Assembly: GCA_951406725.2 (NCBI GenBank)
Contig: OX597818.1
Location: 63,922,001-63,986,000 of the forward strand
DNA length: 64,000 bases
Source: Octopus vulgaris
Lineage: Eukaryota
Direction of reading: 5' to 3'
The translations under genes were made by a program, and so were the position numbers. Shown piece by piece: positions 5,675-63,139 of the stretch. Position 1 is the first letter of the stretch. Each line of letters opens with the position of its first letter. Under the pieces are notes generated by a model. It had not been told where the DNA came from, did no database searches, and worked only from the letters and a program-made list of their open reading frames with translations.

Positions 5675-8332
5675 ATCACTTAGAACATCTTCAACAGATA
5701 ACGGAATAAAAATCAGGGTCTATTTTAATGAAGGTAATTTGCGTGCTTAAAATTACAGGCTAACTGGGCGCCTTGATTGCTAATTAAAACAATGGAATGT
5801 TATGAGTTGAATAAAATACGAATGCTCTCAATGTATCACCGTTATTTCCATAAACGTTGTATTTGTAATTGACTAAGCAAACTGATACAATTACAAAGCC
5901 TGGTGTTTCAATGGGTGAGAGCACTTTCAGATAGATTTGTCAGAACTTTTAGAAATGCAATTTTGCATAGTGACTTGTTGCTAGATAAGTCCTGTTTTGC
6001 TGGCTGACTGATGTATTGATCACTATTGAAGTGTAATAAACATTACATTGAATATTTCTTTGAAATATAATGAATATAATTGTTATTCAAAGAGTGAAAT
6101 CAATTCTCAACTATAAGCGTTTGAAGGTGGGTGTACGCTTGCTTATTATATATATGTGTGTCTGTGTCTGTGCGCGTGTATGTTCTATATGTCTGTGTGC
6201 GTGTGCGAGTATGAATTTATTAGATTGAAGGTGAGGTGTGCTTGTACATATTTTTGTTTTATATTGCTGTCCGTCATTCTCAGTGTAAGATATTGTTATT
6301 TTTTAAATTGAAAATCTTTCGTTTTCGGTTCTAATCAATATATTACCGCTTATATCCCCAGAAAAATTGCGTTTGCAAATTGTGTGGTGAATGTATGTTA
6401 TACAGAAATAATTAGTTGCTATAGACGCGTAATACTCAAAATGCTGTACCAGTGCCAACTTATTTGCCAGCTATACGCTTTGGCGCATGTGCAGGTCGTA
6501 TATTTGCTTTAGCTGTGATAGTATTTACTACAAATTCTTGAAATGGACAAGAATATTTATTTTATCGCATCAAGACCTTTCAAAATATATGTCCTAAAGA
6601 TAAGTATTTATGTATTTTGGAGTTTTTTGACAAAATCCGTTGATAATTACAGAATAAATATGAGATATATATAATAGCTGACGATGTTTTTCAATGAGTC
6701 TTGTTTACTTTTGTGCTCTTTTTCTGTATTTTATCGAGAAAATCCTTACCTTTCAAGATACCAGTGTAGTAACTAAAAAAGTATTTCAGAAAATTTTTAA
6801 CAATAAAATGCTTAGAATCGCCTGAGGCCCTATGCTTAACTAGAGTGTTAGATATATTATTGAATTGTTGGAGAATATATGCATCGATTGCAAAATTCAG
6901 TTTGGCGATTTCTCAATAGTATTTGGTAGTTACAAATGTTAAATGACATCGTCTTCATTGTTAATAATTTTCTGCTCAGTTCTGGAAACACTTTGCAACA
7001 CCATAAGTAGCCAGCACTATAGGGTAAATTGAATTTAGTCTTTCCAGATACATCTACAGCAATCTTATAGTTTTAGCACTTCTTAAATTTTATAACACAC
7101 ACCTACTTAACTGCTTTCTGAACTCCTCCGATTTTCTCCGCACTGATTATCTATTCCAGTAACTTGAAAGAATGGCTATACACGCACAGCTAGGTGTTAA
7201 CCAAGATAACGAAGCACATATCTTCAATATTTAACAAATTTTCATTGAATTATCATGATGACATATTTCGAGTTATTTACATGTTTGCGCCTTATAAACT
7301 GTAAATTATAGCTTCTTTCCTGTAAATTATAATTGTGTAAACTGTAAATTATAGCTAACGTACAACATCTTTAATTTTTTGTATAATTAATATTTAGAAT
7401 AAATTAAGCTAACTCTTCTTCAAATCTAATATTAAACTAAATAAAAATTAGAACGATTTCTACAGAACCTAACTCAACAATATTTACTACTCTTTCAGTA
7501 TTTAATGCCGGAAAGTTTGCAGGCTCGTTTATAATGATTTGGCGATCGCCTTAGTTCTTGGAACTGGAATCATGTTGCATGTTTATTGAAGCAAAACTTG
7601 TACTTTCATGGTTCTCTCATTTAGTCAGTTGGAAATCATAACCAGCCAATTTACTGGCCCATCTAAACTATCACATGAAGCTATCACATGATCTATGCTC
7701 TGGTTTGTCAGGTAACGAGCGCACAGAAGCTATCAATGTCTCCCGTAGACAATATAGCCATCTCAAATACGTAATGAAGCATGGTCGCCCTTACCAATTT
7801 AAAACTGGTTGCGCGTGACAGCTAAATTTTCTGGACATGTCCACGATATCTCATTAAAACAAAATATATATCTCTACTATTTTTTTCTCTTTTGTAACCT
7901 ACCGAAAGTCAATGTCGAAAAAATAATATTAACGTATAAGAAAATATTCCACAATTGAAATATATTTTTAGTTTATTTTACGCTACATAAGTATCAGAAC
8001 ATATATATCTAAATGAATACAACTAACATAATTTCGAAAAAAGGATTTTAAAACAATTTAGTATGAGTTTAATTATGTGATAAGCTTTATATAGCTAAGA
8101 AGTATACTGTCAAATATATTTGACTATATATAAGGTTGTATTTTTGTATGAATTTTGACAATATAGCCAATAGAGAGAGTATGAATAATGTTGATAGTAA
8201 ATATGTGTGCCACAAATACATGGCAATGAATTTATCGATATATATATATATATATATACGTATGTATATAACATTTTTTCGTAATGAGATAAAAACCCAT
8301 GGCTGTGTAGATTTTTGAACATTTATAAATAG

Positions 8333-8380
8333 GTCTTACACCTATTTCTAGGATATTTATTATATCCCTTCATCGGAGAC
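8333..8380 (-). ncRNA. Penelope-type hammerhead ribozyme motif (type I, degenerate)
   Basis: GUCU-CCGAUGA-A.GGGAUAU/AUAUCCU.A-GAAA-UAGGUG-UA-AGAC: 4-bp stem I, 7-bp stem II, GUA cleavage triplet. Confidence 0.55.
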
Positions 8381-10479
8381 GGTGTGGGAAGAGGTTTAAG
8401 CAAAAGTCAAATTAGATAAGATACACAACAGAGAGTGAGGTGGAGGAATGAGAATAGATGTGAGATATGCATTTGTAGATTCATTATTTAGGCAGAATGG
8501 TATACATATAAGAATCCAATACTTTATGAGTAAAATCCCACAGTATTTAAAAGTGATCATTCCAAGTTTTTATTCAAGGTTTTTATTTAAAGTGACCTAG
8601 AAGTAGGGGAATGTATTAGTAAGGTCAAATCGCAAACAGGAAGAGAGAAACAAAGAAGATAAAAAAGAGAAAAGAAAGAGAAGAAAATAAGAAAACTAAT
8701 AAAATGATAAAAAATAAAAATAAAAAAGAGGAAAAAATCTGAAATAGAGGAATAAAGAAAAGAAAGAAAAAAGGGGAAAGGAAAAACCAATAGTAAGGGA
8801 TAGTGTACCAGTTAGTGGTCAGTCGAGATAGTTTGAAAGTAGGAATGGGGAGATGTGGGTGATAGAGAGAGAAAGGTATTAGAGTGAAAAAAGATAGAAG
8901 GGAGGAGGTGTGATAGAGAGAGAGAGAGAGATATAAAAAGTAAAGGAGTGTCAATTGTGCAGAGATAGTCTAAGTGATGGTGAAGATAGAGAGGTAGTAG
9001 TATGGAATGAAGAATTTAGGAATTTGGTTGGTTTGTTTGGACAGGTCAATGTTTAGTAGTAGAAGAATATATATATTTGAAGATGTATACATTCGTATAT
9101 AGTAGTCATGTATGTATATATATATTTGTCAATATATATTTATACTGATGTTTATATTTATCAATATCTACATATACAACTTTTACTCCTATGCATATGC
9201 ACACATGCGAACCCATATATACGTGTATCTGCATGTATTATTCAAGAACCATGGAATTATGATGAAAAATGCTAGAAACATCTTAAATGTAAAATTTAAA
9301 TTTCGAAAAATTAAAAATTGATTTCCTCTGTGCTGAAAACAAACTTTTCTGAAAACACAAAATAAAACTATATTAAAAACAGTTATCAGGAGTTATATTC
9401 CCTAAGAAAAGCAGAATTTCACTGACTAGTGTAACTGATGTAACAGGTTGTTAGTTGCTACGTCATTATATTCCTTGTAATACCAGTTTTTCCATCATTA
9501 CTGTAATAAACTATACAACATATTCGTATGTTATTTTCAGCTAACACGCTATTACAGTGATCGTAGTATTGGCGTGTACTCTGTATTCGTTGAGAGAGAA
9601 AGAGAACTATGAGCTGGGCACTGGCCTTGATTCCTAATGGAATTGGCATCACCAACTGTGTCATTCTAGACTACTCCAAACATTGCTTAAATCCCAATTA
9701 TAGAGAATATGTGACTGAACTGCATGTATAAATTGTTCATATTTAAACACTTTTCTGGGAGGATAGAAAAGTGAATTACATGTGTATAAAGAGTGTTGTG
9801 TTTTGTTACTGTAATTTAATATAGTTCGTATCAATAGGCCTTCTAACAACACTGTGTTACGTCTGCTCAATGTTTTCGTCGGAACAACCGAAATGTTACG
9901 CCAGTGTTTCGTTTCTCGCTTCTGATTCTCGTCTGCGATAACTATTGATTGCTTCCTGGCTTAATGCATGCTCTATGCTAATGGCATCGATAAATGAAAG
10001 GTCAATATTTGAGGAAAACTGGCAGATATAAAGATGACAAGCAATGGTTAACGGATGGTGTTGTGGTTGTTTTGGCAATATACACTTCTAAATGTTTTTG
10101 TTTCTCAATTCCATTGTCATTTCAAATCGAAAGTTCACCTCCGGTGATGATAGCATGTTGCCATTTGAATGCTTCAGTTTCCTATATATTTATCTCATAT
10201 TGTGCTTGAAACTACAGTGAAGTATCACAGTAAATTAGTGACAATTGTTTCCGGTGTAAACATTTCACTGTAAGACCTCTTAACATAATATTACGTAACA
10301 GACAAAAACTAATACAAATTTCATTCACAAAGAAAGTTTACTTATTAGACACAATAAAAAATAAACACATTTGAATTTTGATAATAAATAGAATATGAAA
10401 TGTTATAATAATACCATAAGTAATAACAATAATTTTACCACCACCACCACCACTACTACTACTACTACTCTAAATATTA

Positions 10480-19865: not shown

Positions 19866-20242
19866 GCAGGAGTGATTGTGTGGTAAGTAGCTTGCTTACC
19901 ATCCACATGGTTCAGGGTTCAGCCCCACTGCGTGGCACCTTGGGTAAGTGTCTTCTACTATAACCTCGGGCCGACCAAAGCCTTCTGGGTTAATTTGGTA
20001 GACGGAAACTGAAAGAATCCCGTCGTATATATGTATATATATATATACGTCTGTGTGTCTGTGTTTGTCCCCCAACATCGCTTGACAACCAATGCTGGTC
20101 TGTTTACGTCCCCGTAAATGAGACCGATAGAATAAGTGCAAGGCTTACCAAGAATAAGTCCTGGAGTCGATTAGCTCGACTAAAGGCGGTGCTCCAGCAT
20201 GGCCACGGCCAAATAACTGAAACATGTAAAAGAGGAAAAGAG
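19866..20242 (+). mobile_element. SINE family A
   Basis: GCAGGAGTGATTGTGTGG head to GGCGGTGCTCCAGCATGGCC tail. Confidence 0.9.
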
Positions 20243-20273
20243 TAAGGGGGAGTACAGGAAAACATTTATTTGT

Positions 20274-20390
20274 AATCACTACAATTGTTTCCACGCAACT
20301 TAGCTCTACATGTTCGCAGGTATTTTGGTTATGTAACCGTCCTGTGATGTCTATGAGCTTTATACTGTACTCTACTACGTCCTCAACGGA
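20274..20390 (-). ncRNA. degenerate hammerhead-like motif, long-stem-II family, copy 1
   Basis: UUGAGGA, ~90 nt, then GCGUG-GAAA-CAAUUG-UA-GUGAU and AAUAAA; homologous to 52294-52403. Confidence 0.4.
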
Positions 20391-20400
20391 GCAAAAACCT

Positions 20401-20444
<44 letters not shown>

Positions 20445-21269
20445 GTATGTATTTAAATAATTTGGGAAACCGAATTTCCAAATCAATCAGGTACAACCCT
20501 TCAGCATTACATGTATCTGCATATCGTACTGTGGGGACTTCTTTATCACATATTTATACATCTATCTAGAAATATAGAACGTATCTAATAGAAGTCAATA
20601 ATAGTTTAGTTTTTTGGGATTAATAGATATGTTTCAGATAATACAAAAAATAGCAAAAAGGAAGTTACTTATTTGCATGTGACATTTTTATTCTGATGTA
20701 TAATTTTATATCTTATATTTTGTATTTGACATTATGTACTTGACATTACAAAATTGATATATATATATACTAATTCATATTTACAATGTATAATTTATAA
20801 GTTTTAATTTTTAATATTACAGAGTATAATTTTAATTTTCAATTTTCAATATTTTTAATGTTTAATTTATTGCTTTATTTAACACTTATTCTTAAAGGGA
20901 TCTAACATTAGATTACAATACTTTGAAAAGAGCCTGTAGTTGTGTTGGAATACTCGTAAATCTGATGGTTTACTGTCCGACGAACAAGAAAGTGAAACTC
21001 TAACAGTTTTTGTGATATTTTTGCCGCTTTTTTAATAAAGCATATTACTCTACTTCAGGTATACAACTATTGCTAAACAATCACGTTGACTTTCTTGCAA
21101 TATATTGTGGACCAGTGTAAACTGCTGCCCTGTGGCGCTTAATAAATGGTCCACTATGTGCTGTAGCCTTGATAAATCTTTGCAGGGAATTAATTTATAG
21201 CTTTATACCTTCATAGCTTTAAATTATAGCTTTTAGCTGTAGGTGAGTTTCAGAGACACACTCTTTGCT

Positions 21270-52070: not shown

Positions 52071-52174
<104 letters not shown>

Positions 52175-52293
52175 CCAATCTATCTAAATATTCATACATA
52201 CATGTGTGTGTATGTGTTTGTGTGCAAGTATATATATATAATAGAAAAAATTGAAGTCAACACGAAGGAGTATATTTCAATATTTATTTTTTA

Positions 52294-52403
52294 ATCTCTA
52301 CAATTGTTTCCACGCAAGGTAGTTACTTGTCCAGGTGTGTAGGTACTTGCTTATGCAAATCTTTCCCAGCATTATAAGAACTAGTGGTGTTTCCTCAGGT
52401 AAT
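52294..52403 (-). ncRNA. hammerhead-like motif, long-stem-II family, copy 2
   Basis: AUUAC-CUGAGGA, ~80 nt, then GCGUG-GAAA-CAAUUG-UA-GAGAU and AAUAAA. Confidence 0.45.
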
Positions 52404-52760
52404 ATGTAAATCTTTTATCCGTATGTTTAAAATCCTCGTCTTCAAGAACATTCGCTCGGTCTGGCCTTAATTTAGTAGTACCCTATTCTTTTGACCCCGA
52501 GTTTTTCAATTTTGTTCAAATATCTATTCACACACAGTTGCCTAAATGTAAACCTGGAAGTACGTAAAATAGCACTTCTGGATAGCACAGAGCAATTCTG
52601 AATGTAGAAGAGCATTATACCGTAATCGCCTACGTTTTTAACAAAATACAACTACGTTCTTAAAGAAAGTATACCATAACTACGTATGTATGTAAGTATG
52701 TATATGTATGTATGTATTTATGTATGTATGTATATATGTATGTATATATATGTATGTATA

Positions 52761-57425: not shown

Positions 57426-58853
57426 CATATATGCGTGTATATGTACATGTAGAGGTAGGTACGTACATATATGTTTATATATATGCATATATTTTATTAA
57501 CATATATATATATATATATATATAAATATGTGGGTTTACAGTTACATACCCATGTGTGTATACAAATGTGCTTGGGGGCGATCTGATTTTATTTAGCGAA
57601 TTATTTCACACTAATACTGAAAAAAAGTAGCGGGTTGTTTCTACCATTTTTGCTTTTGGAACTGAATTATATCCACAAATATAGATTAGTACGAATTTAC
57701 GTTTAGATGTACGTATCCATGAATATATATTCATACACACACGAACACACAGACACAACTATATACATACACTGTACATGTGTATGTATATATTTGCGTA
57801 AGCATATGTATTCATGTATACACATACAGACCAATATGCAGCAGTAAATAAACTGTAAGTATGGATGTCATTGAATGTGTGCAGCTGTATGTTTGCATTA
57901 TGCATACGTAAACAAATGTATATTTGCGCATATATCCCAGTTTATACCCAGCTTTTCAAAGCACAAATGTAGGAGGTTGTTGTGTGCATAACACAAAGAG
58001 CATGCATTTTCTTGTAATGGTGTTCTTTACAATAACAGCTAACACGCTTTTATTTTCCTTCATATTTTGTGTCCATTATTCTCCGGTGGTATTCATGCTA
58101 TCCTTTCTACTCATGCACATTGTACTAGATACCTGAATGGCGAATTCACGTGCGCGGCAAAATTCAGAACCATCTGGAATAAAACATTTCTTTAGTGAAT
58201 ATGATTGCTTATTTCACATGGAAGCCAGTTTATGATTAATGATGGAAAGCGAAGTAATCCTACATTCGATAAATAAAACTCTTGTGATGAATGTTCTATT
58301 CTTTTCATATATTACCAGGGGCACAGGACTGTGCACGAGTGTGTTGCTGTGTGTGTATGTGTTCGCGTGTGTGTGCGTGTGCGTCAGTGTCTGTGGCTGA
58401 GATTACGTGTTTTTTTTTATTATAGATGATAAATTAATATCCATACATGCAATCTCAAAAAGAAAAAAAATGAAAATAAACATGGCGTAAAATAAGTCTC
58501 ACAACGCTCACGGCTGGAATGGTTTTCAATACATCTCTGCATGACGAGGGCTGATATCTGGCAATGTGACATCAATTCCTGTTACTGAAACAGACGAACA
58601 ATATCTTCCTCACTCGATGTTATACGTGAAGTGACGATGTAATGTGCAAGAGCATTGTATAAAACTTTTGATATCAATGATATCAATGTATAGACCATAT
58701 CATGTCAATATGCAACACATCTTATAATACATATATGCATGTATGTATATCTGCATGTGTGCGTATGCGTGGGTATATACACACACACACACACACCCAC
58801 ATATATATATATATTTGCATATTTGCACGCGGACACACACATACACAGACACG

Positions 58854-58894
<41 letters not shown>

Positions 58895-59236
58895 CTATAT
58901 ATATAACTGGATGGACTAAGTGAAGGAAGGGGACACACACGTAGAGGGAACACGTCACTGAAGAGGTTACACATGGGCGACGAAAAAATACCGGACAATG
59001 GATATGAGTTAGAATAAAAGCAGTAATGAAAGAGTGAGGAATGATATATATCGCGTCTTTATTTGCACCCCAACCACCCAAAGAAATGACCGTTCCAAAA
59101 CAGAGATATGTGTGTGTATTTGTGTGTGTGTGTACGTATCTTGTATGTATATATTTTATTAATTGGCCTTTACGGCTGATAACTCGCATGCCACATATAA
59201 GGTTATTTAAATAATATCACCACTTCTCATATATAT

Positions 59237-62787: not shown

Positions 62788-62857
<70 letters not shown>

Positions 62858-62977
62858 TTATATAGAAGGAGCTTCTACAGGACTAGAACTGTTTCATTCA
62901 AGAGAAATCTTCAGGAAGCACTGAAGATTTCTCTTGAATGAAACACTTCTAGTCCTGTAGAAGCTCCTTCTATATAA
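62858..62977. repeat. near-perfect palindrome (two ~57-bp arms, 6-nt loop GAAGCA)
   Basis: 62858-62914 is the reverse complement of 62921-62977 with one mismatch. Confidence 0.95.
62871..62919 (-). ncRNA. type I hammerhead ribozyme motif (Penelope-like)
   Basis: GCUUC-CUGAAGA-U.UUC(UCUU)GAA.U-GAAA-CAG(UUCUAGUC)CUG-UA-GAAGC: full conserved core, 5-bp stem I, 4-bp stem III, GUA triplet. Confidence 0.75.
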
Positions 62978-63048
62978 TAAATTAATTTTACTCTGCTATG
63001 TATTGAGTACCTTATTTACTGTGGTTAACCCCGAATCAACCCGGGACC

Positions 63049-63139
<91 letters not shown>

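Follow-up and report, generated by a model that had tools for sequence, protein, structure and literature searches.

The published accounts of Penelope-like elements (PLEs), in the sections drawn on here, describe hammerhead ribozymes in the pLTRs, opposite-strand hammerhead pairs 100–700 bp apart, inverted truncated copies, tails and the targeting of (TA)n runs; the inverted copies, the tails, the pLTRs and the role of the hammerhead are called open in passages of PMC8557442, PMC11167929 and PMC4209133. Such a locus was found in the window (the whole 64-kb stretch of Octopus vulgaris DNA that was analysed), and by its sequence it can be classed as a minimal insertion of a young Hydra-clade PLE. 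With the Hydra clade, as presented in the parts of Craig et al. (2021, PMC8557442) used for comparison, the family (family 1) shares a protein with DKT, a CxCx5C linker, CxxC, CxH and, at its C-terminus, a putative GIY-YIG, together with a canonical hammerhead, a (TA)n target, partial tandems, an inverted 5'-truncated copy and a tail at one end. It differs from the same description in having RWR for RWK, a tail of 73 nt against 30–40 nt and a unit of 4.8 kb, the latter because of a microsatellite-rich 3' UTR; the N-terminus also differs, by eye, from that of Hydra-1_Obim in the portion of the PMC8557442 supplement consulted. A dominant class of minimal palindromes and signs of a transcription start site are features found here and not described in those parts of PMC8557442.

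The likeness extends to Poseidon PAc of Anolis (Frangieh et al. 2024, PMC11167929), whose protein, according to the sections cited, nicks and extends both target strands and starts reverse transcription (RT) at two internal sites bounding the tail on an uncleaved RNA template. Those sections contain no report of the two sites being paired within one insertion, nor any link to inversions, and the priming described there is not homologous to the target, whereas both sites found here end AT-rich and merge with (TA)n. Non-LTR retrozymes (PMC7229834; bioRxiv 10.64898/2026.07.22.740005), in the portions consulted, likewise have a type I hammerhead, and family 1 also gives rise to 271-bp and 277-bp arrays in tandem. 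Arrays L061 and L067 show what defines a retrozyme, head-to-tail units that each carry a hammerhead, while the window locus is head-to-head; it departs from the retrozymes in being inverted and in having neither promoter nor second sense ribozyme, and for this reason is unlikely to make a circle.

In LINE-1 twin priming the second target strand primes on the RNA, which results in an inversion of adjacent segments with a variable second site. The palindromes described below resemble LINE-1 in an inversion attributable to second-strand priming and differ in that one and the same stretch is copied in both arms, starting from two fixed sites. The extra G at a complete 5' end is a further likeness to LINE-1, for whose type of reverse transcriptase the part of PMC4038843 cited here describes an added G from cap copying.

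Structure of the window locus

The insertion lies between a left (TA)n target run at 62804–62853 and a right one at 63053–63136. Its left arm (62853–62919, minus strand) spans the segment between the second base of stem I and insertion site A and equals donor L074:2090-2156 with one mismatch (62856), while the right arm (62921–63055, plus strand) extends from core C3 through site A and a 73-nt tail to insertion site B and equals L074:2095-2229, also with one mismatch. The loop between them (62915–62920) contains the head-to-head junction, and its base 62920 has no template in the donor. Folding confirmed the near-perfect palindrome of about 57 bp claimed in the first-pass annotation: 57 pairs with one mismatch and a 6-nt loop, at an MFE of about -96 kcal/mol and a z of about -20.

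The minus strand of the left arm carries a type I hammerhead motif at 62919–62871, with the core CUGAAGA (consensus CUGANGA), GAAA, a UH site and three stems: a 5-bp stem I GCUUC/GAAGC, stem II UUC/GAA opened by a U.U pair, and stem III ACAG/CUGU with a CUAG loop. The GUA at 62878–62876 places the predicted cut between 62876 and 62875; self-cleavage at this position is a prediction from the sequence. The complete core reported earlier was thus recovered by an explicit descriptor, including all stems and the GUA site, and this was its single match on both strands of the 64 kb, as compared to means of 0.04 loose and 0.0 strict sites in 100 Markov shuffles. The U.U pair replaces the usual G-C at the base of stem II, a variant that is described in the cited part of PMC7229834. 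Rfam gave no hammerhead family for the locus, either among the 66 matches of one scan or among the 150 listed of the 184 matches in another, and the matches obtained were driven by microsatellites or hairpins only. Four further motifs that had been proposed as ribozymes, at 8.3, 20.3, 52.3 and 59 kb, did not survive: no hammerhead was formed under the descriptor used at 8150–8450, 20150–20450, 52150–52450 or 58850–59150. Those at 20.3 and 52.3 kb have a short motif in common which also occurs beside L074, and may be the ends of another repeat family. A decayed hammerhead with a site A region, 75% like family 2, was seen at 20972–21062 (plus strand).

The right arm carries an incomplete copy of the hammerhead (62921–62965, plus strand) lacking the 5' strand of stem I, and a private G>C at 62946, missed in the first-pass annotation, breaks its stem III. 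The arm does start at core C3 (62921) as had been noted, but this start is not fixed, being one of 25 junction types among 50 copies. The AATAAA after the incomplete hammerhead copy is present, but belongs to insertion site A, with no sign here of a role as polyA signal. Site A (62970–62982, plus), where one of the arms has its outer end in copies of the family, is read through by the right arm; it is followed at 62989–63009 by an RCUC-loop-GAGY hairpin conserved across Hydra elements, a candidate protein-binding element, and the long arm ends at site B (63040–63055, plus), which merges into the target run.

Copy number and age of the palindromes

A search of the genome (2.8 Gb, 227 contigs) with an exact pattern for the head-to-head centre found at least 1,044 palindromes, while a control pattern found none. 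The stem II core occurred exactly 4,890 times, 2,113 of them with native upstream sequence, so the palindromes, with 2,088 arms against the 4,890 exact cores (counted with different patterns), hold a large share of the family's ribozymes. The first 50 palindrome sites on C1 were all analysed as an unselected sample. Their centres fell into 25 junction types, ten being loopless perfect palindromes, and their substitutions relative to the reference copy amounted to 0.32%, in agreement with the young age that had been suggested for the insertion. Variants were confined to one arm in 34 cases and found in both arms in none, bar a subfamily marker. The variety of junction types and the absence of arm-shared variants indicate that the inversion arose anew with every insertion, or at any rate on many occasions. 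Conversion between the arms was rejected on the same 34 one-arm variants against none shared, and the impression, given by copies ranked by likeness to the window junction, that the left end is fixed and bears an added A disappeared in the unselected sample.

Perfect palindromes are a known read artefact. That those found here stem from assembly or long-read fold-back, or are one palindromic element copied whole, has nevertheless a very low probability in our estimate: such artefacts could produce perfect palindromes as such, but not readily 25 junction types in 50 copies, or, at loci unrelated to each other, ends that are fixed, asymmetric and set in (TA)n. Contigs of run X17, which may not be independent of the assembly, also break at the same three places with an inverted join.

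Parent element and related families

Sequence on the far side of the tail led to the linked reading frame for an RT and a putative GIY-YIG expected from the Penelope-derived origin that had been put forward: an unbroken ORF of 713 aa at L074:2272-4413, within a partial tandem of 4,784 bp and with the ribozyme core 177 nt above its ATG. The protein includes RWR at position 38 (RWK in family 2), DKT, YRDD, the CxCx5C linker, LVY at 586, YIG at 603, CxxC and CxH. Its predicted structure (pLDDT 88) had telomerase reverse transcriptases as the five top Foldseek matches, with E of 5e-9 to 6e-8 and low TM-scores. Pfam gave no RT match to the 713-aa protein, and its GIY-YIG model matched one of 36 aligned relatives and not the protein itself; relatives numbered 1,118 among 8,000 candidates. 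Set against the definition of the Hydra clade in the passages of PMC8557442 used, the protein has DKT for DKG, no GxKF/Y, the CxCx5C linker, CxxC and CxH, and no CX2-5CxxC, and the element inserts into (TA)n; general PLE traits were also present, namely a partial tandem (pLTR) with a hammerhead, an inverted truncated copy and a tail. By these sequence characters, the parent can be assigned to the Hydra-clade PLEs.

Many family 1 copies (L072, L073, L075 and others) have a common break of the reading frame near codon 500, and a broken donor may therefore have spread in trans. The 3' UTR (L074:4420-6640) consists of about 2.3 kb of mixed AT/GT microsatellite, therefore the element may itself spread such repeats. 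A second Hydra family has a 711-aa ORF with 48% identity over the N-terminal 200 residues; its loci (L182-L198, L201 and L202-L209, e.g. L186:1517-3649) include many unbroken ORFs of this length and their own hammerhead. A third, more decayed Hydra family was represented by L199 and L200, with no ribozyme found by the descriptor above its ATG.

Outer ends of the arms

The outer ends showed a strict pairing. In 48 of the 50 unselected copies the two arms had different outer ends, site A for one and, 73 nt further 3', site B for the other; both ends lay in (TA)n, and the remaining two copies were disturbed. Genome-wide, exact patterns found A/A pairs once and pairs with both arms past A five times (one a known jump case), while by our estimate each class would number roughly a hundred or more under random pairing. 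The inverted pairs of kilobase length behaved alike, with A+B ends in all ten that were fetched and ribozymes far apart. Family 2 has at least 170 mini-palindromes whose two ends lie 71 nt apart, and seven of eight had clean A+B ends. Arms ending at A without an inverted partner occur as well (L141). The A+B pairing in both families, combined with the two-strand, two-site biochemistry of the PLE protein in the sections of PMC11167929 cited, therefore points to twin priming.

The RCUC-loop-GAGY hairpin lies about 6 nt 3' of site A. It was present in 39 of 47 Hydra ribozyme contexts, at 30–56 nt below the cut (1.5 in shuffles, maximum 7), and a G-C to A-U swap was found in it in both families of this genome; both families also have a predicted hairpin at a similar distance below site B. 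That these hairpins position the RT is a guess. Metagenome Hydra elements (L210-L286) have an RCUC-loop-GAGY-AC hairpin below the ribozyme, and several copies there end in (TA)n just before it.

Inner end of the arms at the ribozyme

The inner boundary was sharp: none of 100 arms read into donor sequence above the A opening stem I. The donors have T at -1 (100 of 100 among those listed), while a hand count of the next cDNA base at 100 arm ends, taken from 50 listed of 125 palindromes with both arms complete and an insert, gave 78 C, 13 T, 6 A and 3 G; the other arm can serve as template for many of these Cs, but about 21 Cs are followed by unrelated letters. Where a solo arm abuts (TA)6+ directly and extends as far as the stem I A, the base at -1 was G 34, T 10, C 8 and A 5 times (57 in total, hand count), all eight Cs coming from a variant subfamily in which C seems to be the native base. 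The G at -1 is absent from both target and donor. Contigs of run X17 over the L074 stretch, with the above caution on their independence from the assembly, break at the same base with an inverted join (22 contigs) and jump back to the boundary base with a G between. The ribozyme junction is uncleaved in the copies.

Of 18 distinct native variants of the upstream sequence, 12 have a TATA box 29 nt above the first base of stem I (+1); in two others it is at 18 nt owing to a deletion, in one at 30 nt, and in three the box is changed. In metagenome Hydra loci, some of which are related to each other, TATAWA was found 30–42 nt above C3 for 10 of 49 sense ribozymes (1.6 in shuffles, none of 2,000 reaching 10), the other 39 being without an exact TATAWA match. 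The sharp boundary, the extra G and the TATA box at -29 together suggest the ribozyme's first base (L074:2089) as the start of transcription, and the 5' end of the RNA is likely capped at this first base of stem I, as read from the DNA. The donor reads YAG at the boundary, and a 3' splice site there, like that of Penelope in D. virilis, was therefore considered; it was rejected because the junctions have no common upstream exon.

The same extra G would also lengthen stem I by one pair, so that a 1-nt cDNA snap-back is a rival source of it. Priming at A and B may thus have been as proposed, with the stop set by RNA trimmed to stem I or by cDNA snapping back on the stem I complement and gaining one C. 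This would agree with a boundary at the edge of stem I in both families and with family 2, which has no TATA box at the same spacing; the inner boundary of family 2 is also blurred, a further point against a capped start. However, trimming or snap-back leaves unexplained why the 29-nt TATA spacing is kept across diverged spacers and why TATA is enriched above other Hydra ribozymes, while the CCTT expected of a longer snap-back was found in none of 100 listed ends; we consider it unlikely, with a low but real chance of being right.

Model of insertion

We favor, as probable though well short of certain, a head-to-head insertion in which both strands of (TA)n would be primed on one uncleaved, likely capped RNA at A and B, run off at the hammerhead and be joined. 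Transcription would begin at the first base of stem I; both nicked strands of the target would prime reverse transcription, from site A on one strand and site B on the other, with a single RNA molecule probably serving both primers. Both cDNAs would run off at the hammerhead's opening base, the likely capped 5' end of the RNA, where the RT may add a C opposite the cap, and their identical 3' ends could then anneal through the self-complementary AGCT and be patched by end joining. Either arm can keep the full end: among 13 junctions of the commonest type the split was 9 to 4, with the short A arm keeping it in nine. The product is probably a dead end since it has neither TATA box nor ORF.

Another route would be a single cDNA primed at B that folds back and copies itself to site A, which would account for the common subfamily markers and for one common junction type (12 of 50). 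Yet the short A arm often has junction sequence absent from the B arm, as in the window, and holds the full end in the nine of 13 junctions just mentioned; ten of the 50 centres have no loop, and there are A-ended arms, such as L141, without an inverted partner. Folding back is thus very unlikely in our judgement.

One RNA or two

The lengths of the two arms were also paired. A hand count on C1 up to 41.8 Mb gave 31 short-short and 18 long-long pairs (10 of the latter fetched, 8 from coordinates only) and no mixed ones, as against about 23 mixed pairs expected if the arms chose independently; three solo short arms and seven long arms without a traced partner were also present, and some mixed pairs may therefore be hidden among the latter. 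The subfamily marker was identical in both arms in 48 of 49 cases. The absence of mixed pairs and the agreement of the markers therefore favor one RNA, while agreement between the arms would be equally expected if one donor RNA dominates a cell. The alternative is two separate RNAs giving one arm each, perhaps as a hammerhead dimer through the CUAG loop. The stem III regions can indeed pair intermolecularly (-12.8 and -15.2 kcal/mol), dimeric action is proposed for the minimal hammerheads of PLEs in the part of PMC4209133 cited, and in array L061 a variant in unit 2 is common to both arms, whereas units 4 and 5 differ between them. However, two equal RNAs predict neither the strict A+B ends (one A/A and five past-A pairs against 1,044) nor the lack of mixed short-long pairs, and we rate this alternative as quite improbable.

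Priming of both strands on one RNA, as favored above, does not by itself cover the long copies. A ribozyme was detectable in 25 of 30 ORF-start loci, 24 of these running past +1, and long copies therefore need another template; some ORF-bearing segments do end at +1 (L068, L069, L071). The tandem arrays of 271 and 277 bp contain promoter, ribozyme, A, B and the ORF start, and the 271-bp array also forms an inversion of its own, bounded by one B end and one A end. The cited part of PMC4209133 proposes that cleavage and ligation by the ribozyme produce circles, which would explain long copies and arrays; read-through multimers would do so as well. The retrozyme-like 271-bp array L061 (G000:C8:91474500-91484400) consists of 5 antisense and 26 sense units with a 10-unit variant period, its B end on the left and A end on the right, and a separate mini-palindrome abuts it. 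The 277-bp array (L067:1313-3001) is a second, independent one from the same element. Template jumps were seen in L006, L064, L068, L069 and L071, where the copy arrives at the ribozyme start, restarts at an internal leader or ORF position and then reaches the ribozyme again. L006 had suggested that the master is a 180-nt retrozyme monomer; this was discarded because its spacer is a jump into the leader from +1 and because full elements are present.

A wider scheme can be offered tentatively, and we hold it possible but on balance doubtful: twin priming by a two-headed RT would be obligate, with start sites set by the hairpins and transcription starting at the hammerhead. The ribozyme would then determine the result: capped uncleaved RNA would give the dead-end mini-palindromes, while circles from cleaved and religated RNA would give long copies in which the upstream promoter is regained (the pLTR) and, after deletion, the retrozyme arrays.

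Is the inversion a protective device?

In a read-through transcript the palindrome hairpin does exclude the ribozyme fold, as the first-pass annotation had argued: the pairing probability of stem I fell from 0.92 in the isolated 49-mer to 0.11 in the whole arm, 0.02 in the native leader and 0.0 in read-through RNA. The further idea of a protective or switchable device found no such backing, as the inversion recurs at no fewer than the 1,044 sites with varied centres and the same A+B ends are found in the kilobase-long pairs, which the mechanics of insertion explain without selection. An inversion kept to silence the ribozyme in host transcripts, or as a releasable switch, would fit the read-through value and the 40 of 50 copies that keep at least one arm with the 5' strand of stem I. 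It is at odds with the inversion being the usual product at all lengths, with the persistence of solo arms and with changes that, at 0.32% divergence, are arm-private only and give no sign of constraint. Moreover, a local hairpin over the cut site in the native leader already disfavours the ribozyme fold without any palindrome. Taken together, a role of this kind is highly improbable.

Significance

Strict A+B pairing, minimal palindromes as a main product, a start site at the ribozyme and the site A hairpin were not found described in searches of the open-licence PMC and bioRxiv literature (subscription papers lay outside this scope); ribozymes, inverted copies and tails in PLEs were already known. 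The window locus alone is ordinary, while its family richly documents PLE insertion: the roughly one thousand young minimal products give two priming sites, the template's 5' end and a conserved hairpin at single-base resolution, and they turn the open question of insertion into a defined in vitro test with the unbroken 713-aa protein. For the host, each palindrome could be a putative source of double-stranded RNA in its transcripts. For the elements, obligate twin priming, if true, would mean one mechanism for tails, inversions, pLTRs and retrozymes.
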